Notes: generated from the letters alone by a model not told the origin. Shown: positions 20,057-31,145, counted from the first letter of the stretch. The stretch: DNA of 32,261 bases from Pirellulales bacterium (GCA_964201845.1 CAXNGP010000001.1:1-32261); one strand, 5' to 3'. A program made the numbers and translations.

Positions 20057-20914
20057 TCAGCCCACAATCGGCTTGAACTGCTTCCGGTACTTCGCGGGTG
20101 TCATTCCGGTCTGGCTACTGAACAACCGCGTGAAGTGGCTCTGTGAACAGAATCCGAGATCAAGTGCTACGAGCGACAGCGGTGTCGAACTGTTCCTGAG
20201 CAATTCCAACGCTTTTACCAGCCGTCGGCGATTGACGAACCGTTCGAGGCTCAGCCCCTCGGTGCGTCGGAACTTTCTGGCACACTGGCTTGGCGAAAGG
20301 CCTACGAGCGAAGCGATTTCCACGAGGCCGATATGACGATGCATGTGAGAGTCGATGTATTCAACGATCCGATTCATGGCTAGGAGTGGAAAGACGCTGC
20401 TGTCTTCATGCCAGTCCGGCGCATACCCACCGAGGAGTTCGATGAGTCGCAAGATCAGTGCACGAGCCGCGATCTTGGAACCCATATCGTTCGTCACTCC
20501 ACAGCCTGTCGTTGAGGCGAGCCGCACCATGCAGTCTCTGAGCACCGCATCTTCGCGAGGCAGGAGATGCGGGTAATCGCTTGGGATATCCGCCTCATCC
20601 GATCCGGCAAGATCGATCAACTGCCATCTTGGTATTTTCAAGAGATACGAACTCGACGGAACCTCTCCTGAGCGGATAACGCGCGTGTGGGCTTCGTTAT
20701 CGGAGGCAAAGAAGGCGACCTGATCGAGTCCGTGACGGTAAAGCCTGTCGCGGCCTCGATGAATCCACTTCACGTCGACTGCTGCTGCAGTCCCGATCAC
20801 GAGCGTGTGGTTCGTCTCACGAGCCTCATAAACTACCGTCGTCGCTGGGGGCATCTCGAACGAGAAACCAAACCACGCACGATGCGGCACGCTCGTCAGA
20901 TGCGGTTCGCGCAA
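20057..20914 (-). CDS. AraC/XylS-family transcriptional regulator (islet cargo)
   Basis: The C-terminal double HTH is '...IVEYIDSHMHRHIGLVEIASLVGLSPSQCARKFRRTEGLSLERFVNRRRLVKALELLRNSSTPLSLVALDLGFCSQSHFTRLFSSQTGMTPAKYRKQ'. The start is uncertain: TTG 20914, GTG 20890 or ATG 20854. The ORF stays open to 21166, but that extension is not protein-like. Confidence 0.8.
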   Translation of the reverse strand: MREPHLTSVPHRAWFGFSFEMPPATTVVYEARETNHTLVIGTAAAVDVKWIHRGRDRLYRHGLDQVAFFASDNEAHTRVIRSGEVPSSSYLLKIPRWQLIDLAGSDEADIPSDYPHLLPREDAVLRDCMVRLASTTGCGVTNDMGSKIAARALILRLIELLGGYAPDWHEDSSVFPLLAMNRIVEYIDSHMHRHIGLVEIASLVGLSPSQCARKFRRTEGLSLERFVNRRRLVKALELLRNSSTPLSLVALDLGFCSQSHFTRLFSSQTGMTPAKYRKQFKPIVG

Positions 20915-21258
20915 AAGCTCCCGAGTAAACTGAACAACTCCCCATCGGTCCCCATCGGAATTGCCCGATGTTAGCGATCTGTTGGGGTATTGTAGGGTTC
21001 GCCATGGCACCGTTGGTCGGTGGCGTGGGGGCAACGGGCCTGCATCCGGAAGTTCGCGTGTCTGTTTCCTGACAAAACGATCGTGTCGCGAAAAAACCCG
21101 CCGTGGTGGCGGAAGTCGCTCGGTCGCGCGCCGAATCTGGCACCGCTGCCTCCCCAGGTTTTGCACCAGTGCTCATGAGCGAGTTTGGGGCGGTGGTCAG
21201 ATTCCGATCTCGCCGCGCAGGTACTCCAGATCCGGATCGATCAGGTCAGCTCGCGGGC

Positions 21259-22647
21259 TCAAGGAGCTGGACGCCGTCCCATCGGTCCGGGAGTGGATCC
21301 GTTTTTCAGGGGTGATGCAAAACGGCCCCAGAGCCACGCGGCCGGGAGGCCCACGATGATCGTCGCCAGCGACAATGCCGCCACCACGGGCCGCTCCCAG
21401 GCGACCGCTGCCGTCAGGATCCCTGTCCCGAGCAGATACACCGCCGGCACGACCGGGTAGCCCGGCACCCGAAACGGCCGCGGCAGATCCGGCCGCCGCA
21501 CCCGCAGCACGAACACCGCCGCGACCGTGAGCATCGAGAAGATCGCCAGCCCCACACCCGCGTAGAGCAGGATCGCCTCGAACGACGCGGTCCAGAGAAG
21601 CACGAGCGCCCAGCCCGCCTGCAAGGCCGTGGCCACGACGGGGGCGCCTTCCGACGACACCCGGCCGGCCGCCGCGGGAAAATGCCCGGCCACGGCCATC
21701 GCGGCGGCCACCCGCGGCCCGGTCAACACGTAAGCGCTCACTGACGCCAGCAGCGTGAGGCCCACGGCCACCGACAGCGGTGCAGCGATCCACGGCCCGA
21801 AGAGCCGCTCGGCGGCGAGCTGGGCGATCGGGGCCACGGCGTCGAGCCCGCGCTCGGCGACGATTCCGCGGATCTCGGCCGCAGTCAACGCCAGGGCATA
21901 GGTGACATTGAGCATGAGGTAGAGGGCCGTCACGATTCCGGTTCCCAGGAGGATCGCCCGGGGCAGCCACCGCTGCGGCTCGGCCACCTCGCCGGCCACG
22001 TAGCCGGCGGCGTTCCAGCCCGTGTAGGCATACGACACATAGACGAGCGACGAGGCCATCGCTACGGCCAGGTCGGGCGACAGTGGCGGCCGATCGACGA
22101 GGTTGCCCCACCGGCCGGCCCCGGCGGCCAGCCCGGCGACCGCGAGGCCCGTAAGAGTCGCGAGCTTCACCAGGGTCATGCCCACCTGGGTGCGGATCGT
22201 CGCACGGCGGCCGAGGCAGTGGACCAGGGACAAGCCGAGAATCACGGTCGTCGCGACCGCGAGTTCTGCTTGACGGCCCGCAGTCGCCTCGAAACCTGCG
22301 GGCGCGAGCAGATACTTCCCCGCCGCCGCCGCCGAGGCCGCGATCGGTCCGCCGAAGCCGATCAGGAACGAGACCCAGCCCGACAGAAACCCCGCCAGCG
22401 GCCCATAGGCCTCCCGCAGGAACACGTAGTCGCCTCCGCTCTCCGGCAGCATCGCGGCGAGCTCGGCGAGCGACAGCGCCCCGCACACCGCCAGGATCCC
22501 GCCCACCACCCAGAGGATGAGCATCAACTGGTTGCTGCCAACGAGCGTTACCGTGAAGCCGCTGGTTGTGAGCACGCCCGTCCCGATCATGCTCGAGACG
22601 ACCAGAAACGTAGCCGTCGCCGGCCCAAACCGGGGGGGCTGACTCAT
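21259..22647 (-). CDS. APC-superfamily amino acid/polyamine permease
   Basis: ATG 22647-22645 gives 462 aa: '[31 protein letters not shown]...' with about 12 hydrophobic segments. The 258-aa upstream extension in the track ORF (to 23421) is Arg-rich shadow. The start overlaps the stop of the upstream gene (ATGA, 22644-22647). Confidence 0.85.
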   Translation of the reverse strand: MSQPPRFGPATATFLVVSSMIGTGVLTTSGFTVTLVGSNQLMLILWVVGGILAVCGALSLAELAAMLPESGGDYVFLREAYGPLAGFLSGWVSFLIGFGGPIAASAAAAGKYLLAPAGFEATAGRQAELAVATTVILGLSLVHCLGRRATIRTQVGMTLVKLATLTGLAVAGLAAGAGRWGNLVDRPPLSPDLAVAMASSLVYVSYAYTGWNAAGYVAGEVAEPQRWLPRAILLGTGIVTALYLMLNVTYALALTAAEIRGIVAERGLDAVAPIAQLAAERLFGPWIAAPLSVAVGLTLLASVSAYVLTGPRVAAAMAVAGHFPAAAGRVSSEGAPVVATALQAGWALVLLWTASFEAILLYAGVGLAIFSMLTVAAVFVLRVRRPDLPRPFRVPGYPVVPAVYLLGTGILTAAVAWERPVVAALSLATIIVGLPAAWLWGRFASPLKNGSTPGPMGRRPAP

Positions 22648-23681
22648 GCGGCCGGACGCCGTCGCGCCGCCCGGCGCACCAGCTCGTCGGCGATCACCCC
22701 GGCCAGGATCACACCGCCGATGATCGCGAACTCCACGTTTTGATACTGCGGATGGGCGAGATTGATCATGTTGTTGAGCACGACCATCAGGGCCGAGCCG
22801 ACGAGCAGCCCGAGGATCGAGCCCTCGCCACCCCGGAGCGAGCAGCCGCCGAGCACGGCCGCCGCGATCGCGTAGAGCTCGTAGAAGTTGCCGAAGTCGC
22901 TGGGCTGGGCGGCGTTGATGTCGAGCACGAACAGCATCCCCCCGAGCGCCGCCAGCGTGCTCGAGATCACATAGGCCAAGAGCTTCATTCGCCCGGTGTC
23001 GATCCCGGAGTAGCGGGCCGCCTGCTCGTTGCGGCCGAGCGCCAACAGATACCGGCCCCAGACGGTGCGATTGAGAAACACCGCCGCCAACACCGCGATC
23101 ACGAGGAAGATCAGCGTGGTGGCGGGCAGCTCGAAGCCCCCTTCCCCGAAGATCGGAAACCGCGCGGTGGCCAGCGACCGCAGCCCCTTGTAGGCCGTGC
23201 CGAAGCCTTGCGACTGGTCCTGCGTGAGCCCGCGGGCCACGCCCCGGTAGATCAGGAGGCCGCAGAGCGTGACCACGAACGGCTGCAGCCCGAGCCTCGT
23301 CACGAGCAACCCGTGCACGAGGCCGATCGCCGCCCCGAGCAGGAGCACGAACCCCACGCCGGCGGGCACGCTCCAACCGTGCTGCACGAGCAGCCAGGGG
23401 AGCAGCACGCCCACCAGGCACACGACCGAGCCGATCGAGAGGTCGATGCCGCCGGTGATGATGACGAAGGCAACCCCGATCGAGAGGATGCCGAACAGCG
23501 CCGTGCGATGGACGATGTTCTCGAGGTTGCCCACTTTCAGGAAGTTGTCGCTGGCCAACGCCGTGTAGAGGCAGACGACCGCCAAGAGGCCGATGATGCC
23601 CAGGATCTTGGGCGACACGATACCCCGGAGGGCTCGGCAGATCGCCGGCCCTCGATCGTTCGCCATCGCCTGCTCGCTCAT
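22644..23681 (-). CDS. Sugar ABC transporter permease (RbsC/BPD_transp_2 type)
   Basis: 345 aa: '...[31 protein letters not shown]...' and '...[12 protein letters not shown]...'. ATGA overlap with the ATPase gene (23678-23681). Confidence 0.9.
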
Positions 23682-25213
23682 GCGCTCATCCTCCCCGCGG
23701 CACCCCCGGCCGCCAACTGCATCACGTTCTCTTCGCTGAGTTCGTCACGGGAGAGCCCGCCGGCAAGCCGCCCCTCGTGCATCACCAGAGCCCGGTCGGC
23801 GAGCGACAGGATCTCCTCCATCTCGCTCGACACGAAGAGCACCGCCAGGCCTTCGCCGGCGAGCCGGTGAACGAGGTCGTAGATCTCCGCCTTGGCGCCC
23901 ACGTCGATGCCCCGCGTCGGCTCGTCGAGCAAGAGCACCTTCGGCTTCATCGCCAGCCACTTGGCGAGCACCACCTTCTGCTGGTTGCCGCCGGAAAGAA
24001 ACTGCACCGCCTGCCGGTCGCCGGGGGTCTTGATCGCCAGCGCCGGAATCATCTCGGTGGACAGCCGCCGTTCCCGGGCGAAGTCGACGAACCCCGCCCG
24101 GCTCTCGGGCCACAAGGACACCAGCGACATGTTCTCCCGTACGGCCATCTCGAGCACGAGGCCCTGCTGCTTGCGGTCTTCCGGCACGAGCGCGAGGCCG
24201 GCCGAGATCGCCTCGATCGGCGTCCGCGGCGTCACCGGCCGCCCCGCCACAGCGATGCTCCCACCCACCGCGGGAGTGACCCCGAACAGCGTCGTCAACA
24301 GCTCCGTCCGGCCGGCCCCGACGAGCCCCGCGATGCCGACGATCTCGCCGGACCGCACCTCGAACGAGATCGGATGTTTCGGGTGGGCGGGCGTCCGCAG
24401 ATCCCGGGCGGCGAGCATCACGTCGCCCGGACGATGGCTCGGCCGGCGGGCGAGCCGGTCGATGTCGCGGCCCACCATCATCCGGATCATCCGGTCGTGC
24501 TCGATTCCGGCGCGATCGGCGATCTCGCCGGCATTTCGCCCGTCGCGGAGAACGACCACGCGATCGGCGAGCTCCTTGACCTCGCCCAACCGATGCGAGA
24601 TCCAGATCACGCTCACCCCCCGCCGGCGCAGCTCCTTGACGACCCGGAAGAGCGTCTCCGTCTCCCGGGCAGAGAGGGAACTCGTCGGCTCGTCCATGAT
24701 CAAGAGCCGCGCCCGCGTGGAAAGCGCCTTGGCGATCTCGACGAGTTGTTGGCGGCCGATCGGCAGCTCGGCCAGCGGCGTCGCCGGATCGAGATCGAGG
24801 CCCACCATCGCCAGCCATTCGGCCGCCTCCCGGCGCATCGTGGCGAGATCGAGCAGCCCCAGCCGCCGTGGCTCCCGGCCCAGGAAGATGTTGCCGGCGA
24901 CGTCGAGGTTGTCGGCGAGGTTCAACTCCTGGTGGATGAGGGCGATCCCCGCCTCCAGGGCGTCTTCCACGCCGCGAAATCGCACCGGCCGGCCGGCCAC
25001 GAGGATCTCCCCCGCGTCGGGCGGCTGCACGCCCGCCAGGATCTTGAGGAGCGTCGACTTCCCCGCCCCGTTCTCACCGATCAGGGCGAGCACCTCGGCC
25101 TGCCCCACACGGAGCGACACGTCGTCGAGGGCCCGCACGCCCGGAAACCGCTTCGAGATCCCCCTCACTTCGACGAGCGGGACCTCGACGAGCGGAACCT
25201 CGGCTGCGTTCAC
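23678..25213 (-). CDS. Sugar ABC transporter ATP-binding protein with duplicated ABC domains (RbsA/MglA type)
   Basis: 511 aa. Walker A 'GENGAGKST', signature/Walker B region '...[11 protein letters not shown]', and a second domain '...[15 protein letters not shown]...[14 protein letters not shown]'. GTG start overlaps the SBP stop (GTGA, 25210-25213). Confidence 0.9.
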
Positions 25214-26349
25214 TTGGCCGCCGGTCGAACGAGCCGCCCGGCCCGCTCGAGCGCCTCGAGGATCAGGGGCGGGTTGTATTCGAAGAGGCCGACCATCGCC
25301 GCCACGTCGGGATGCCGCAACAGCACGTCCTCGGCATTGGCCTTGGCCTTGGCCCGGTCGAACTGGTCGGTCATCGTGCCGAGGATCTCGTACTTGCCGT
25401 CGTCGCTCGTGATCACCGCGCCGGGATCATCGCGGCGGGCGGGATCGGGGTCACGGCCGAGAATCCCGTCGATGCAGCCCTGGCGGCGCCGCTGGGAGTT
25501 GTCCTGGTCGAGCCGCCCGATGAAGAGCATCACCTTGCCGCCGGCGGGCAGGGCGTCGCGGACGAGCTTGCCGCAGATCAGTCCGGCCTCGTAGTTGTCC
25601 ATCCCGATGTAGACCTTGCGGGGCGAATCGGGCGCGTCGCTGTCGTGGGTGACGAGATTCGTGGCGGCGGCCGCCTTGGCAAGCACCTCACCCTGATTGG
25701 CCGGATTGATCGGGCTGATGGCGATCCCGGCCGTGCCCCGCGTGAGCAGGTCCTCGATTTTGCGGGTCTGGTCGGTGATCGAACTGGGCATGATCACGGT
25801 CGCTCTCACGCCCAGGTCGGCCGCGGCCTTCTCGGCGCCCGCCTTGCCGATCGTCCAGAAGTCGGCCACGCCGTTGGTGATGAAGGCGTATTCAGGCCCC
25901 TCGCCCGCCGCGGCGGCGCCGCCCCCGGCGAGCAGCTTCTTGAGCTCCTCCCGAAACACGGCCACCGGCACCACCTCGGCCCCGGCGAACTCCTTGCGGG
26001 AATCATCGGCCAGCACCACCCGGGCCGGGATATTGATGAACTTGCTCTCCGGGACCGCGTCGGCCTTGCCTTCCTTGATGGCGTGCAGCGTCTGGATGCT
26101 CTTGGCACCGTACTGAAACGGGTTCTGGACGATCGTGCCCACGACCGTGCCATCGGCGATCCCCTGCAGCACCGCCGCCGATTCGTCGAACGCGATCACC
26201 TTGACCGGCGGCAGGGACTTGGCAGTCCCGGCCCCAGCGCCGCCGCCACCACCAGCCCCGTCACGCGAGCCGCAACCCGAGGCTGCGACCGCCACCAGGG
26301 CGGCCGTCGCGAGGCCCAACAGACGGATATTTTTTAAGGACGCTTCCAT
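25210..26349 (-). CDS. RbsB-like (type I periplasmic binding protein) sugar-binding lipoprotein, apparently circularly permuted
   Basis: ATG 26349 (TTG alternative 26367). Signal peptide plus lipobox: '[17 protein letters not shown]'. See the finding for the segment order. The overlapping + strand ORF 25312-26337 is shadow. Confidence 0.85.
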
Positions 26350-26504
26350 AGCGGTGTACTCCGGCAAGACAAGCGGTTTTCCCCGGCGACGAGAGTCTAA
26401 CCCGCCCGAGGAACCGCTTCAACGCGTGCGCCGCTGCGGCGGGTGGCGTTCACGTTGCCAGTTTCGACGCGCGCGGCGCCGATCCCTCGTACGCTGAATG
26501 AACG

Positions 26505-27097
26505 ATGAGCACCCATTCCAGCGGCCGCCCCCTCCCCGGTTCATCCCGCCTCACGGCCTTTGCCCGAGGCGGATTGTTGCGCTGCCCGGCCTGCGGCGCG
26601 GGACCGCTCTTTCGCGGCTGGTTCCGGATGCACGACGCCTGCCGGGCCTGCGCCGCGTCGTTCCTTCGTGAGCAGGGCTTCTACCTGGGCTCCATCTACA
26701 TCAACTACGGGGTCACGGTATCGTCACCGGCGCACTCTATGCGTTGCTCGTGCTGGTCGTGGGCACGTCCCATGAGACGGCGCTCACCGCCTGCCTGGTC
26801 GGAGCCGTAGCTTTTCCGATCCTCTTCTTCCGGTACGCGCGGAGTTTTCTCCTGGCCCTCGACGGGTCGGTGAACCGGCACCAGCAGCACGCCACGCTCG
26901 ACGCGACCGAGGGCACGGAAGCCGATCGGGCTCACCTCGCCGCGCTGACCGCCGACGACGGTCGCGCGGGCTGTGCCATGGGCATCGCCCTCGCCCTGAT
27001 CCTGCTGTTCGGCCTCGGTATGGCCGCCGTGACGATCCTGTTCGCGACCGGCACGAGCGGCCCACGGCAGCATGAAGACGCGGTCGACCTGCGGTAG
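26505..27097 (+). pseudogene. DUF983-like zinc-ribbon membrane protein with a -1 frameshift
   Basis: Frame A (26505-) reads 'LLRCPACGAGPLFRGWFRMHDACRACAASF...GFYLGSIYINYGVT'. The hydrophobic continuation 'IVTGALYALLVLVVGTSHETALTACLVGAVAFPILFFRYARSF...' lies in the frame of ORF 26744-27097. The switch falls at about 26709-26720, next to a G4 run. Confidence 0.55.
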
Positions 27098-27174: not shown

Positions 27175-28260
27175 ATGGCCTCATCTTGCCTGCCTCACGC
27201 CACCTCGCTCGCGGCCGCTCTCGCCGGCGTCCTCCTGGCGACGCCGGCTGCGCCCGCCGCCGAGCCCGGCCCCGACCTGCTCCCCACAGTGGGCTCGATC
27301 GAGCGGCTCGACCCCCGTTTCGACGCGCTCGTGCCGCCGGGCGCCGTGATCGAGGTCCTCGCCTCGGGCTTCGCCTGGAGCGAAGGCCCGGTCTGGGTGT
27401 CGAGCGACCGCACGGGGCTGCCCGCCGGCAGCCTGCTCTTCTCCGACATCCCGCACAACCGCATCCACCGCTGGCAGCCGGGCCAGGGTCTCGACATCTT
27501 CATGGAGCCCGCCGGCTTCACCGGTCCGGCCGGCTACGGCAACGAGCGGGGCTCCAATGGACTCACGCTCGATCGCGAAGGCCGGCTCATCTGCTGCGAG
27601 CACGGCGATCGGCGCGTGTCGCGGCTCGAGCCCGGCGGGGGCAAGAAGACGCTCGCCGACTCCTACCGGGGCAAGCGGCTCAACAGCCCCAACGACGCGG
27701 TCGTCCACTCCTCGGGCGCGATCTATTTCACCGACCCGCCCTACGGCCTGCCGAAGGGCTGGGACGATCCGCGCCGCGAGCTCGACTTCTGCGGCGTCTA
27801 CCGGCTCGCGCCCGACGGCACGCTCACGCTCCTGTGCGACACCATGACCCGCCCCAATGGGATCGCCCTCTCGCCCGACGAGAAGACGCTCTACGTGGCG
27901 CAGTCCGACCCTGCGGCCCCGATCTGGCAAGCCTTTGCCGTGGCGGCCGACGGAACACTCGCCGACGCCACGACCGGTGGCCGCGTGTTCTTCGATGCCA
28001 CCGCGTTGGCGAAGACCCGCCGCGGCCACCCCGACGGCCTGAAGGTGGACGCCGCGGGCAACCTGTTCGCGACCGGGCCGGGCGGCGTGCTCGTGTTCGC
28101 CCTCGATGGCACGCACCTCGGCTCGCTCTTGACCGGACAGGCCACGGCCAACTGTGCCTTCGGCGAGGACGGCCAGACGCTCTTCATCACGGCCGACTCG
28201 CTTCTCTGCCGCGTGCGACTGACGACCAAGGGACGGCTGCCCGGGCCCGACGCCGACTGA
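27175..28260 (+). CDS. SMP-30/gluconolactonase/LRE-family beta-propeller protein, secreted
   Basis: 361 aa with signal peptide 'MASSCLPHATSLAAALAGVLLATPAAPAAEP'. Family motifs: 'EGPVW...LLFSDIPHNRIHRW', 'SNGLTLDREGRLICCEHG', 'LNSPNDAVVHSSGAIYFTDPPYG', 'RPNGIALSPDEKTLYVA', 'PDGLKVDAAGNLF'. Confidence 0.85.
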   Translation: MASSCLPHATSLAAALAGVLLATPAAPAAEPGPDLLPTVGSIERLDPRFDALVPPGAVIEVLASGFAWSEGPVWVSSDRTGLPAGSLLFSDIPHNRIHRWQPGQGLDIFMEPAGFTGPAGYGNERGSNGLTLDREGRLICCEHGDRRVSRLEPGGGKKTLADSYRGKRLNSPNDAVVHSSGAIYFTDPPYGLPKGWDDPRRELDFCGVYRLAPDGTLTLLCDTMTRPNGIALSPDEKTLYVAQSDPAAPIWQAFAVAADGTLADATTGGRVFFDATALAKTRRGHPDGLKVDAAGNLFATGPGGVLVFALDGTHLGSLLTGQATANCAFGEDGQTLFITADSLLCRVRLTTKGRLPGPDAD

Positions 28261-28314: not shown

Positions 28315-30459
28315 TCACCGCCGCGGGCCCGTGGTCGGTGCGTTCACCGCGGCCGCCGATGGGAGTCCGGCGGCGAGTGCCGCGAAGGCGACGGCCCGTG
28401 GCAGCGGAGCCCCGGGTCGGGCACCCGGGCCGGCAGCCGGCGGCTTCGGGGCGACCGGCGGCTTGGGCGCGACGGGCGGTGCGACGGCGAGGCCCACGTC
28501 GAGGCCGCGGGTTTCGCCGCCCTTTGTCAGCCCCACGATCCGGCTCGTGACCGCCGCGCCGCCGGCCGGCGTCACGACCACGCGGTACGACCCCAGGTCG
28601 AGCCGGTCGAAGCTGTAACCACCGCGGGCGTCGGTTCGCGTGCTGGCGACGGTCGCCCCCGTGGCGTCGACGAGCGTGACCAGCGCGGCGGCCACGCCCG
28701 CCTCGATCGACTGGCGAATCCCGTCCCCGTTGCGGTCGCCGAACACCGTGCCGCCGATGGAGGCCCGGAACAGAAACACGTCGGACTGCAGGTTCGTGAG
28801 GCCGGTGTTGCGCCGGATCACGTCAGCGAGCGTCGTGGCCTGGATCGACCGCACCGCCGCGGCGGGCAGCACGTTCTGATACCAGTAACGGTCGCCGTCG
28901 CGGAGCCGCCGGAACTGGTCCACGATGATCCGGGTGAAGGTCGCCCCCAGGCTCGAGCCCGGCAGATGCTTCTCCGCCAGGCCGCCGACCCACAGGTCGA
29001 CCTTGTCGACGGAGCCGTAGGTGGCCTCGAGCGCCTGCTGCACGGCCGGGGTGGCCGAAATCTGGGCGAAGCTGGTCACCCGGGGCAGGCCGTAGGCCTC
29101 CCGCACCGTGTTGTAGTCGGGCAGGCCGTGGTCGCGGCCGCGCTGGATGTTGAGGGCGGCCAGGTCGAATCCGCCTTGGCCGGGAGCGCCGAACAGAAAG
29201 TTTCGCACGTCGTCGATCACGACGGCGTCCATCTCCTGGGCCCGATCGCTCGCCAGATACTTGAGGATCGGGTCGATGCCCGTCGCGGCCACCACATCGA
29301 TGTTGAAAAAGGCGTCGCGGAGGCTCAGCGCGTCGCGGACCTCGTTGCCTTGGTTGTCGAGGAAGCCCACCTCGTCGCCCAGGAGGCTGTGACCGAACCG
29401 GTAGGCCGCCGTGGCAAACTCGGTGCTGATGCCGGCGTCCACGTTTGGCCGATAGCCGCGGTACGACTGCATCGCGACCGTCGCCGGGGTGCCCTGGCCG
29501 AGGATCGCCGGCAGAAACTCCGTGTAGGTGATGTCCTGCAACTCGGCGACCACCAGCCGCCGGGCGTGCTGGAAGATCTGCTCGTCACTCCAGCCGGGAT
29601 TACGGACCGCGGCATCGGCGGCGATCCGGTTGTGCTCGCGCACGAACAGCGTCTGCAACGCCAGCAGCTGGGGGTTTTCATTGGCCCGCACGTCGCCGGC
29701 CAGATACAGCTCCGCATCGGGCGTCAGGCCGATCGTGGCGTTGGGCAGGCCGGCCGTGTTGAACGGCAGGAGGTTGCCGGCGCTCGTCTTGAGTCGGCCA
29801 CCGGCAAACTCCCGCAGCGCCGCCGCCCGCGTCGGGTCCGATCCGTAGATCTGCGAACCGTCGATGTAGGCCGTCAGCGAGTTCACCTGCTGCCGGGGCG
29901 TGGTCGTGCCCGTGGCCGGGTCGTAGGCGGTGCGCAGGTTCGGCATCGTCCTCGTGCCGGTGCCCGTGGGGTCGAACCAGGGATCGCCCGCGGGAATGCT
30001 GATCGAGATCAGTTCGGCGGGGACGGCCGAATCCGAGAGGGTCAGGTCGTGGTCGAGAAACTGGCCCCACGCGTAGACAAAGCCGCTCATGTCGCGGGCA
30101 TTGGTGATCCCGCCGGCCGGGCTCGCAAAGATCTGGTTGCTGATCAGCCGCTCACCGGGACGATCCGCCCCCGACAGGCTCGCGAGCCCGTCGCCATAGG
30201 CCGCCGAAGAGACGCGCAGGAACGGTTCGCCCGTGCTGCCCCACTCGGGGTGGTTCAGGTTGTTGCCGGTGCCGTCGAGCGATTGGACGGGCAGGGGCAA
30301 CGGTGCGACGGCCAGCAGGGCGCGGGGCTCCAGTCGCTCAGGCGTCGACAGCCGTCGCGAACGGCCGACGCCCTGGTGGCGGCCGGCCCGGGAAGTGTTG
30401 CATTTTGCATCGCGCGTTGCATTGTGCGTCGATCGGTCCGTGTGATTGCTGGCGTTCAT
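28315..30459 (-). CDS. Animal-type haem peroxidase (peroxidase-cyclooxygenase superfamily) with a C-terminal SdrD-B/Cna-B-like domain and a Pro-rich tail
   Basis: ATG 30459-30457 is preceded by GGAGGA, although the ORF is open to 30678. Motifs: 'SLDGTGNNLNHPEWGSTGEPFLR', 'ARDMSGFVYAWGQFLDHDLTLS', '...YRFGHSLL...', '...DLAALNIQRGRDHGLPDYN'. C-terminus: 'GGTVFGDRNGDGIRQ...TDARGGYSFDRLDLGSYRVVV', then 'PPVAPKPPVAPKPP'. Confidence 0.85.
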   Translation of the reverse strand: MNASNHTDRSTHNATRDAKCNTSRAGRHQGVGRSRRLSTPERLEPRALLAVAPLPLPVQSLDGTGNNLNHPEWGSTGEPFLRVSSAAYGDGLASLSGADRPGERLISNQIFASPAGGITNARDMSGFVYAWGQFLDHDLTLSDSAVPAELISISIPAGDPWFDPTGTGTRTMPNLRTAYDPATGTTTPRQQVNSLTAYIDGSQIYGSDPTRAAALREFAGGRLKTSAGNLLPFNTAGLPNATIGLTPDAELYLAGDVRANENPQLLALQTLFVREHNRIAADAAVRNPGWSDEQIFQHARRLVVAELQDITYTEFLPAILGQGTPATVAMQSYRGYRPNVDAGISTEFATAAYRFGHSLLGDEVGFLDNQGNEVRDALSLRDAFFNIDVVAATGIDPILKYLASDRAQEMDAVVIDDVRNFLFGAPGQGGFDLAALNIQRGRDHGLPDYNTVREAYGLPRVTSFAQISATPAVQQALEATYGSVDKVDLWVGGLAEKHLPGSSLGATFTRIIVDQFRRLRDGDRYWYQNVLPAAAVRSIQATTLADVIRRNTGLTNLQSDVFLFRASIGGTVFGDRNGDGIRQSIEAGVAAALVTLVDATGATVASTRTDARGGYSFDRLDLGSYRVVVTPAGGAAVTSRIVGLTKGGETRGLDVGLAVAPPVAPKPPVAPKPPAAGPGARPGAPLPRAVAFAALAAGLPSAAAVNAPTTGPRR

Positions 30460-30662
30460 GGCGTCCTCCGGATGATCGTTCGAGTTGGGAAATCGCTGGC
30501 CCTTGCCCTGTTCCTGCTTGAACCGGCCAACGTGGCCGAAGTTGCACGGGGGTGAGCTGAGCAAAGGGCGTGCCGCGGCGGGGTCGCGGAAATCCGTGGC
30601 GGCGATTGCCTGCCCCGCAACTTCGCCGCGACCCACCCGTTGAACGGCGAAGCGAGTTGGAG

Positions 30663-31145
30663 ATGGCGATGCACGCACGACGACTGGCGATGACCGGCCT
30701 CGCAGCCTGCCTGGCGGCCTGGCCCGCGAGCCGACCGGCTGCCCAGCCCCCCGCGCCAGTCTGCTCGCCGACCCGGATCAGCCTCCAGACCGGCCGCAGC
30801 CCGGCGGCCCTCCACTGGACGAAGGCTGCTCCGGCCGAGCCGGGCCACGACTTCATGGCCAAGAGCAAGGAAGCGGGCAAGCCGTTCTTCATCCGGCTCT
30901 CGTGGAACGCGCTGCATGCCTCCGAGAACGCGCTCGAGGCGACGCTCGCGAAGGATGCGCAGCGGCTCGGCAGCCGCGACGACCGGCGCACCACCGTGGC
31001 CACGATCACCGAGGACCTCGACACCGGCGTGGGCCGGGTGCTCACCGCGATCGACCGGCTCGGCCTCGCGGGCACGACCGACGTGATCTCCACCTCCGAC
31101 AAGCCGGATAAGCCCGGGAAGCCGGTACTCAAGGAGCCGTCATGA
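30663..31145 (+). pseudogene. Miniaturised sulfatase-derived ORF (160 aa). It retains the C-x-P-x-R motif but lacks most of the catalytic domain.
   Basis: Reads 'MAMHARRLAMTGLAACLAAWPASRPAAQPPAPVCSPTRISLQTGRSPAALHWT', then directly '...GKPFFIRLSWNALHASEN' and '...TEDLDTGVGRVLTAIDRLGLAGTTDVISTSDK'. These segments lie far apart in normal 450-500-aa sulfatases. The N-terminal metal-binding DD region and the GKWH region are missing. The stop overlaps the next ATG (ATGA, 31142-31145). Confidence 0.55.

Follow-up and report, generated by a model that had tools for sequence, protein, structure and literature searches.

A 32,261-nucleotide stretch of DNA from a Pirellulales bacterium (GCA_964201845.1 CAXNGP010000001.1:1-32261; hereafter the window, meaning the whole stretch) encodes, at positions 25210-26349 of the minus strand, an RbsB-like lipoprotein of 379 residues that is a natural circular permutant of the type I (cluster B) fold of periplasmic binding proteins. 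Very probably it serves as the substrate-binding protein (SBP) of an RbsABC-like sugar importer of the ATP-binding cassette (ABC) type in a freshwater, Pirellulales-type planctomycete. On balance, comparison with its relatives also favors a wider conclusion, namely that the tethered SBP subfamily to which it belongs in PVC bacteria is a hotspot of reversible permutation, with four segment orders and at least half a dozen interconversions that arose through internal duplication and deletions. A preliminary description of the locus had claimed a circular permutation relative to RbsB-type proteins; all of the protein strings that it quoted were found in the translated lipoprotein, and comparisons of profiles, sequences and structure models bear the claim out.

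The gene was delimited by its open reading frame (ORF), its match to Peripla_BP_4 (PF13407) and an AlphaFold2 (AF2) model. The frame begins with an ATG at 26349 and ends with a stop at 25212-25210; an alternative upstream start, a TTG at 26367, is possible, though homologues begin at MEASLKN. The product (the query in the comparisons below) is 100% identical to a database protein cluster, P0001. Residues 1-26 (26272-26349, as are all segments of the gene on the minus strand) comprise a signal peptide and lipobox read from the sequence (...VAVAASG-C26), and Cys26 is invariant in an alignment of 44 permuted homologues. The start, ME(A/T)(S/P)(L/F)(K/R)N, and the motif GCG(S/P)R(D/E) are present also at L020, a locus of canonical order that is considered below. 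A Gly-rich tether (residues 27-47; 26209-26271) leads from the lipid anchor to the new N-terminus. It was recognized by its low predicted local distance difference test score (pLDDT), its variability and its nonsynonymous divergence (dN): both its length and its sequence differ among homologues, its dN is the highest in the gene, and pLDDT is <50 over residues 1-42.

The relocated C-terminal segment (Cseg; residues 48-140; 25930-26208) follows the tether, with the string VKVIAFDES...INIPARVV beginning at residue 49. It was identified by its match to the glucose/xylose-binding protein of Thermotoga maritima (TmGBP), by tblastn and by mapping onto Escherichia coli RbsB. Residues 48-115 correspond to RbsB 208-271 and comprise a strand of the C-terminal lobe (C-lobe), a helix, a hinge crossing, a strand and helix of the N-terminal lobe (N-lobe) and the final strands, while residues 116-140 form a family-specific strand plus helix, the extension helix being 129-140. 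The segment bears D55 (RbsB D215) and Q75 (RbsB Q235), and canonical-order relatives carry the same segment, extension included, at their C-terminus. A Gly/Ala linker (residues 141-152; 25894-25929), delimited by model confidence and comparison of homologues, then joins the old C-terminus to the old N-terminus. The linker is of low complexity and variable among homologues, yet is found in every permuted-order protein, and the confidence of the AF2 model is lower there (block mean about 66).

The canonical N-terminal segment, N1 (residues 153-303; 25441-25893; RbsB about 3-150), opens with EYAFITNG... and was delimited by profile, matches to PDB chains, tblastn and RbsB mapping. It runs from the N-lobe core across the first hinge into the C-lobe, of which it makes up the first half, and bears F164, W165, D236 and R288. 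A family-specific surface loop (residues 304-316; 25402-25440), apparent from comparison with relatives of the 5ER3 type (discussed below), separates N1 from N2; it is the termini site of those relatives, whose chains end inside the loop and start just past it. N2 (residues 317-373; 25231-25401; RbsB about 155-206; PDB matches, tblastn and RbsB mapping) is a strand-helix-strand-helix unit of the C-lobe that bears F330 and N359 and ends at the new C-terminus. The gene closes with a six-residue tail, VRPAAK, and the stop codon (25210-25230, from the sequence), a TGA that overlaps the GTG opening the ATPase reading frame. The tail, GGCGGCCAAG-TGA, is kept across permuted loci, and its counterpart at L020, GGCAGCCCGG-TGA, is similar.

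PF13407 matches the lipoprotein with 144.6 bits (cut-off 35.1; E 5e-42) in two stretches, the best of which places residues 162-372 on profile positions 10-207 of 258. The two stretches stand in swapped order and are not collinear, which is the pattern that the preliminary description had expected of a profile alignment. Searches of PDB chains with phmmer revealed the same arrangement: query residues 158-373 match TmGBP 9-208 and residues 46-92 match TmGBP 208-254, E. coli RbsB gives the same swapped pattern, and more than 40 solved sugar SBPs match the lipoprotein. A close canonical-order relative runs continuously across the exact break point of the query. When the query was re-ordered (150-373, then 47-145), the score of its global alignment with E. 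coli RbsB rose from 138 to 197.5. The break maps in this alignment to RbsB K206|S207, which would place it in the C-terminal-lobe loop that links helix 192-205 to strand 208-213.

The AF2 model, built from 44 permuted homologues, has a pLDDT of 86.5 and a predicted template modelling score (pTM) of 0.82, with disorder only over residues 1-42. Foldseek, which is order-dependent, aligns it to canonical SBPs over 224 columns only (TMt, the template modelling score normalised to the target, 0.62-0.63), with a probability of 1.00 to cluster B SBPs and a root-mean-square deviation of 1.9 Å over 224 columns to 3C6Q; this match and that to 5ER3 together cover all segments of the query. In the model, the chain is predicted to form two alpha/beta lobes that make up the clamp fold. 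A control of canonical order that is ~85% identical to the query (P0062) gave an AF2 model with a pLDDT of 89.9, which aligned over 330 columns to TmGBP (TMt 0.86) and over 292 columns to RbsB (TMt 0.84), and its Pfam match is single and collinear (profile positions 10-257). The canonical collinear order, with strands 2-1-3-4-5 in both lobes and three hinge crossings, is not found in the query. The query is a type I / cluster B homologue with permuted topology and not a canonical member.

Among the 120 best database clusters, the query order Cseg-N1-N2 was found in 69 and the canonical order in 51. The 69 query-order clusters come from JGI, ENA, NCBI and Logan, and homologues as distant as about 63% identity keep the query order. 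When one genome per GTDB species was scanned, 80 related loci were obtained, of which 21 have the query order; the records of these 21 all name Planctomycetota and are mostly Pirellulales metagenome-assembled genomes (MAGs) from lakes and estuaries, the nearest being L001 (97% identical), in a Pirellulales MAG from Lake Mendota. Recurrence of the order in 69 of those 120 clusters and in 21 independently assembled genomes is far beyond chance. A tblastn search found Cseg once in the window (26214-25930), and no second copy of Cseg, N1 or N2, even a partial one, was detected in the window or the 80 related loci. No direct repeat >20 nt was detected in 24900-26700, where there are short chance matches only. 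Misassembly, against which the preliminary description had advised a check, is excluded by the single-copy segments, the lack of long repeats and the recurrence of the order in many independent assemblies. Separately, nine MAG records (L006, L010, L012, L016, L018, L046, L047, L054 and L063) are labelled 'Candidatus Kuenenia', 'Akkermansia muciniphila' or 'Bifidobacterium sp.' while their genes group with Pirellulales or Verrucomicrobiales, so the taxonomy given by the submitters looks unreliable.

Purifying selection acts on each segment of the gene. The ratio of nonsynonymous to synonymous divergence (omega; Nei-Gojobori, query versus six orthologues) is 0.09-0.19 for the whole gene, 0.09-0.23 for Cseg, 0.02-0.09 for N1 and 0.04-0.09 for N2. 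Among the 44 homologues, F164, W165, D236, R288, N359, D55 and Q75 are invariant and F330 is conserved in at least 90%. In the order F164, W165, D236, R288, F330, N359, D55 and Q75, these residues align to F15, F16, D89, R141, F164, N190, D215 and Q235 of RbsB, and ligand-contact positions are contributed by all three segments. Purifying selection in each segment and the invariant ligand-contact positions support, on sequence grounds, the earlier suggestion that the gene is probably functional. No NCBIfam equivalog was matched above its cut-off, and a ligand assignment was not obtained that way.

Segment orders across the family

A profile-free scan of 1.84 billion representatives recovered 2,830 relatives, the best 150 of which (at 50% identity) were classified with segment hidden Markov models. 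The canonical order, N1-N2-Cseg, was assigned to 82 of these 150, and the order N2-Cseg-N1 (type R), which is that of the solved Rhodopirellula baltica protein 5ER3, to 20. Five have the complete query order, at 38-49% identity to the query, and five have it in part. A fourth order, cut inside N1, is represented by two proteins, and a fused tandem of 688 residues by one (P0121); the other 34 representatives are fragments without one or two segments. The two fourth-order proteins (P0126, 385 residues; P0267, 340 residues) start at the strand equivalent to query 271-277 and end after the helix equivalent to query 252-266. On the Pfam profile, the query order is cut near position 207, the 5ER3 type near 172 and the fourth type near 120. 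By RbsB numbering, all three cut sites map to loops of the C-terminal lobe. The lipobox is present in all segment orders.

The orders, of which there are at least four, are interleaved in a neighbour-joining tree of the SBPs (corrected p-distances on re-ordered cores; 142 sequences, 281 columns, 200 bootstraps). P0134 (R) and P0133 (query-type) form a pair with 100% bootstrap support, which canonical P0149 joins at 99%; P0133 and P0134 are 70-76% identical in all segments while differing in order. Other mixed clades comprise P0222 (R) and P0213 (canonical) at 90%, P0146 (canonical) and P0142 (R) at 80%, and P0167 (canonical) and P0150 (query-type) at 78%. The query's own clade, comprising 17 permuted and two canonical members, has 100% support. 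About six changes of order are required by the supported clades, and Fitch parsimony on the full tree counts 21, which is an upper-side figure.

The fused tandem P0121 is a 688-residue lipoprotein with two complete units (N1-N2-Cseg-linker-N1-N2-Cseg) that are 42.5% identical and joined by LKRLLAGGSASAPEQ; the inter-unit junction, ...LKRLLAGGSAS..., resembles the query linker. It was identified on two independent contigs (L081, 5001-7067; L082, 358-2424), where it heads an operon of SBP, ATPase and permease genes.

Canonical order was also identified in close relatives of the query, namely at L020, in the Pirellulales MAG LejiaF_68_39, and in the protein clusters P0059, P0062, P0064 and P0065. 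These L020-type proteins are 78-93% identical to the query per segment, which is closer than the basal permuted proteins P0066-P0073. The neighbours of L020 are those found at permuted loci, with a gluconolactonase-like gene (SGL), an ATPase and a permease that are 86, 86 and 89% identical to those of the window, respectively. In a tree of the operon (concatenated ATPase and permease, 796 columns, 500 bootstraps), L020 and 17 permuted loci form a clade with 100% support, within which L020 is basal in 0.2% of the replicates. Because L020 combines canonical order with a place at the orthologous locus within the permuted clade, its order is probably a secondary reversion from the permuted one.

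The termini of the L020-type proteins fit such a reversion. Their tether ends in ...AAGPEYAF, comparable to the end of the query linker. Their C-terminus, ...KLLSGSKAAR-stop, is to be compared with KLLAG... and the tail ...PAAK-stop in permuted proteins, and with ...KLGK-stop in ordinary canonical relatives. The restored junction, AGRL-RE-VKV, matches the native length of GKLGK-VKV. To judge from these sequences, the L020-type termini look like remnants of the permuted linker and tail.

How the order probably switched and what it may mean

Between the permuted loci and L020, conservation and collinearity extend over the signal peptide and lipobox, the start ATGGAA.CG and the upstream motifs (TTGAAG, 17 nt, TAGACT, and GGGGAAAACCG); also conserved are the last codons with the TGA that overlaps the ATPase frame. 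Only two internal blocks, Cseg-linker and N1-N2, have exchanged places. Since the gene ends are unchanged across the switch, the swap was internal to the gene. An in-frame partial tandem duplication within the gene would make the new junction in one step, and two deletions would then strip the outer redundant blocks while leaving the promoter, signal peptide and stop untouched. We consider such an internal duplication-deletion swap the most likely route and favor it over the trimming of a whole-gene duplicate. The DNA of L020 and the window (85% in N1+N2, 74% in Cseg) is too diverged for microhomology at the breakpoints to be recognized.

The preliminary description had envisaged tandem duplication followed by trimming of both ends. 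In full, this route comprises duplication of the whole gene in tandem, in-frame fusion, and trimming of copy 1 in its 5' part and of copy 2 in its 3' part. It is the classical model for circular permutation, and its duplication step finds a counterpart in the 688-residue fused tandem on two contigs, with its junction resembling the query linker. Its trimming step fits less well: the signal peptide and lipobox, present in all permuted members, would be lost by simple trimming, and across the L020 switch the 5' untranslated region (UTR), signal peptide, lipobox and 3' end all stay put. The 42.5% identity of the P0121 units also marks them as no recent duplicate. Trimming of a whole-gene duplicate is therefore an unlikely route, if a possible one for the original canonical-to-permuted event, which is too old for study at the DNA level.

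In operation, the lipoprotein would fold as the usual two-lobe clamp and hold a monosaccharide between its lobes; this sugar may be related to the neighbouring lactonase. It would then be handed to the RbsC-like permease, with the RbsA-like ATPase driving transport. The lipid anchor would hang from the C-terminal lobe, as opposed to strand 1 of the N-terminal lobe in canonical proteins, and the linker would add a fourth connection between the lobes, as has been described for TpMglB-2 of Treponema pallidum. The frequency of the switches, and a reversal with unchanged transporter partners, suggest that the segment orders are near-equivalent in function.

Alternatively, the permutation could be adaptive, with the C-lobe tether and fourth connection altering docking geometry or the dynamics of opening and closing. 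The lipobox in all orders of the family, the mapping of all three alternative break sites to C-terminal-lobe loops (RbsB numbering) and the persistence of the permuted order in a clade whose members have drifted to about 63% identity would all accord with this. A link between tethering and permutation has been proposed by Brautigam et al. (PMC4990184). However, the canonical relatives are lipoproteins too, so tethering alone needs no permutation; one lineage has reverted with its operon and neighbours unchanged; and close relatives have different, interleaved orders. Near-neutral switching accounts for this pattern better than a directional advantage does, and we regard an adaptive origin as doubtful.

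It is very improbable that no reversion took place at L020, that is, that its order is ancestral and several independent permutations occurred around it, or that L020 took up a canonical SBP gene from elsewhere. The family evidently permutes often, and the sister group of L020 is supported at only 39%. Even so, if the order of L020 were ancestral, at least three independent permutations at identical sites would be needed in 99.2% of the replicates (point estimate, six), and the permuted members have a homologous linker and tail in common. The L020-type SBPs are nested in the permuted clade of the SBP tree (100%), their 78-93% identity to the query per segment leaves no external canonical donor evident, and their termini resemble remnants of the permuted linker and tail. 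Both candidates, an ancestral and a foreign canonical gene, were rejected on the SBP tree and on the tree of ATPase and permease.

That the gene is a decaying, non-functional remnant with a chance open frame is barely credible: nothing beyond its unusual order speaks for it, and against it stand an omega of 0.09-0.19 for the whole gene and low values per segment, the invariant lipobox and ligand-contact residues, the position of the gene as the first in a conserved three-gene operon with a stop that overlaps the next frame, and a fold that is predicted with confidence. Least credible of all is an assembly artefact in which two tandem canonical genes were collapsed or chimerised and the permuted frame is absent from the cell; the window is probably a metagenome contig and tandem or fused SBP genes do occur in the family (P0121), but the same order recurs with ordinary divergence in 69 protein clusters and 21 independently assembled genomes, each segment has a single copy in the window and in all 80 loci, there are no direct repeats >20 nt in 24900-26700, both segments flanking the junctions are under purifying selection, and the permuted relative 5ER3 was crystallised as a single chain.

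Several points nevertheless weigh against our account of a functional protein in a family that switches order by internal duplication and deletion. The immediate sister group of L020 is poorly supported, its grouping with the L004 group being recovered in 39% of the replicates of the ATPase and permease tree. Deep nodes of the neighbour-joining trees are weakly supported, and the number of switches is bounded only, at no fewer than about six. The lobe of the break loop, the position of the extension helix and the fourth connection are placed by the RbsB mapping and by analogy with TpMglB-2. Near-equivalence of the orders is read from their pattern, and moving the tether may have had an adaptive effect. 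No Cseg-N1-N2-Cseg intermediate was identified among the proteins or loci examined, so the duplication-deletion route is one that we infer, and P0121, whose units are 42.5% identical, may be no intermediate but a stable two-domain protein. Sugar binding, lipidation and transport by the lipoprotein are likewise activities that we infer.

The operon and its surroundings

The lipoprotein gene stands at the head of a standard ABC operon, as the preliminary description had stated, in which the SBP gene is followed by an ATPase with two fused ABC_tran domains and a BPD_transp_2 permease. The RbsA-like ATPase, with two fused nucleotide-binding domains, is encoded at 23678-25213 on the minus strand (PF00005, two stretches, E 4e-54), and its gene lies downstream of the SBP gene in nearly all of the 80 related loci. 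The RbsC-like permease (22644-23681, minus strand; PF02653, E 2e-48) is syntenic in related loci. A divergently transcribed SMP-30/gluconolactonase-like gene (SGL; 27175-28260, plus strand; PF08450, E 3e-41) lies on the other side of the lipoprotein gene and is found upstream of the operon, at 83-95% identity, in L002, L004, L006, L007 and L020. Beyond the permease, an AraC-type regulator is encoded at 20057-21166 on the minus strand. The divergent SGL gene and the AraC-type regulator hint at an aldose or sugar-lactone substrate.

Alignment of upstream regions revealed a motif pair, TTGA(A/G)G (TTGAAG in the window) and TAGACT, separated by 17 nt, at 26394-26422 on the minus strand. The pair, followed by GGGGAAA(A/G)CCG, is conserved in six loci (the window, L001, L002, L004, L006 and L020). 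A scan for consensus (sigma-70) promoters upstream of the gene gave nothing at the threshold of 9 of 12 matches. The TTGAAG/TAGACT pair and the element that follows it may be the promoter and a 5' UTR element of the operon.

A 15-nt tandem duplication at 25167-25196 (ACTTCGACGAGCGGG / ACCTCGACGAGCGGA, plus strand) corresponds to about codons 6-15 of the ATPase gene, and most homologous ATPases align from residue 17 onward only. The GTG that overlaps the SBP stop may not be the true start of the ATPase, or the N-terminal extension may be lineage-specific. Directly downstream of the permease, a 429-codon ORF (21197-22486, minus strand) is overlapped by a 720-codon ORF in another frame; the predicted 429-residue product has no Pfam match, and no counterpart was detected in the 80 related loci. 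One of these ORFs may be a gene, or neither. On the far side of the SGL gene, a 787-residue protein (28315-30678, minus strand) comprises a full animal haem peroxidase domain (PF03098, E 2e-160), then SdrD B-like and CarboxypepD_reg domains and a tail rich in Pro and Ala; for a planctomycete, such a secreted peroxidase is unusual.

Comparison with known systems

TpMglB-2 (Tp0684) of T. pallidum was described in 2016 as a circularly permuted type I / cluster B sugar-binding lipoprotein (PMC4990184). The first three strands of its N-lobe (about 100 residues) are at the C-terminus, giving an N-lobe order of 5-4-6-1-2-3 with the C-lobe unchanged; the joined old termini form a fourth hinge crossover, and glucose binding and closure are retained (PMC4990184). 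Brautigam et al. coined 'Type Ic / Cluster Bc' for this arrangement and suggested that the permutation is connected with membrane tethering (PMC4990184). Like TpMglB-2, the query is a permuted type I sugar-binding lipoprotein of an ABC importer, with a lipobox whose Cys26 is invariant. Unlike TpMglB-2, in which N-lobe strands were moved, the query has an intact N1 after the linker and a break in a C-lobe loop (RbsB 206/207). TpMglB-2 further differs in belonging to an MglB-like subfamily with a Ca2+ site and in representing one topology in one clade, for which neither switching nor reversal is reported. MglB chains match the query weakly, over N1 alone (E 5e-4 to 2e-2), and TpMglB-2 was not among the sequence matches of the query at E <= 1 (phmmer, PDB chains). 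In the AF2 model, the old C-terminus of the query passes from helix 129-140 through linker 141-152 into N-lobe strand 153-157. Derivation of the query order from the same event as that of TpMglB-2 was rejected, as the break site and the subfamily differ.

The best match to the query in both sequence (E 6e-64) and structure is 5ER3, a protein of R. baltica SH 1 solved by structural genomics and released in 2015. It belongs to the same subfamily and phylum and has the same kind of fused junction between old termini, comprising the C-terminal helix, a linker and strand 1. Query residues 39-303 align without a break to residues 76-335 of the 5ER3 chain (Cseg, linker and N1), and Foldseek superposes 267 columns; chain residues 27-80 correspond to query 317-370, which gives the order N2-Cseg-N1. 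The break in 5ER3 thus lies in the N1/N2 loop, with the native N2-to-Cseg junction kept, whereas the query is cut between N2 and Cseg. The Cys that starts the 5ER3 chain is probably the lipobox cysteine. No paper mentioning 5ER3 was found in the searchable literature, and its permutation seems to be undescribed, as far as we found. Literature searches for permuted binding proteins in Planctomycetes, Verrucomicrobia or PVC bacteria found nothing, TpMglB-2 alone having turned up.

The canonical cluster B SBPs TmGBP (2H3H, 3C6Q) and RbsB (1DRJ, 2DRI) have the fold, Pfam family and ligand-contact positions of the query, and an operon of the same type, which encodes a fused double ATPase and one BPD_transp_2 permease. 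They differ from the query in their collinear N1-N2-Cseg order and in being without the C-terminal strand-plus-helix extension and the Gly/Ala linker. RbsB is also soluble in the periplasm and without a lipid anchor, in contrast to the lipoprotein described here.

DNA methyltransferases provide another case of several permuted orders of one fold, usually explained by duplication and fusion with subsequent loss of ends. Their permutation classes are ancient and deeply diverged, whereas in this family the order differs between proteins that share 60-90% identity, and at a single orthologous locus, which allows individual events to be dated and dissected. Most inferences of circular permutation come from old and isolated cases, and its route and cost are hard to study for that reason. 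Here, several orders are found among close relatives that share an operon, including a solved structure (5ER3), a probable reversal and a fused tandem. This makes it possible to test an origin by internal duplication and deletion, whether the orders are neutral or adaptive, and how a tether and an extra link affect clamp dynamics and docking. If the orders are interchangeable with the same permease and ATPase, they would provide dated, natural before-and-after pairs for the effects of connectivity and tether on the Venus-flytrap fold.

There may be practical uses as well. Periplasmic binding proteins are the main scaffolds of fluorescent biosensors, the engineered sites of which are sought empirically, and this family offers three naturally tolerated sites, all of which map to one lobe. 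Profile-based annotation reports such proteins as partial or two-hit matches to Peripla_BP_4, and the chain order can consequently go unnoticed, as seemingly happened with 5ER3. The family, with its repeated switches of segment order and one switch back, can serve as a natural test case for the evolution of protein topology. A permuted type I binding protein as such was already known from TpMglB-2 and from the solved structure 5ER3, and what seems to be new relative to these systems is the pattern of switching between orders at the level of the family.

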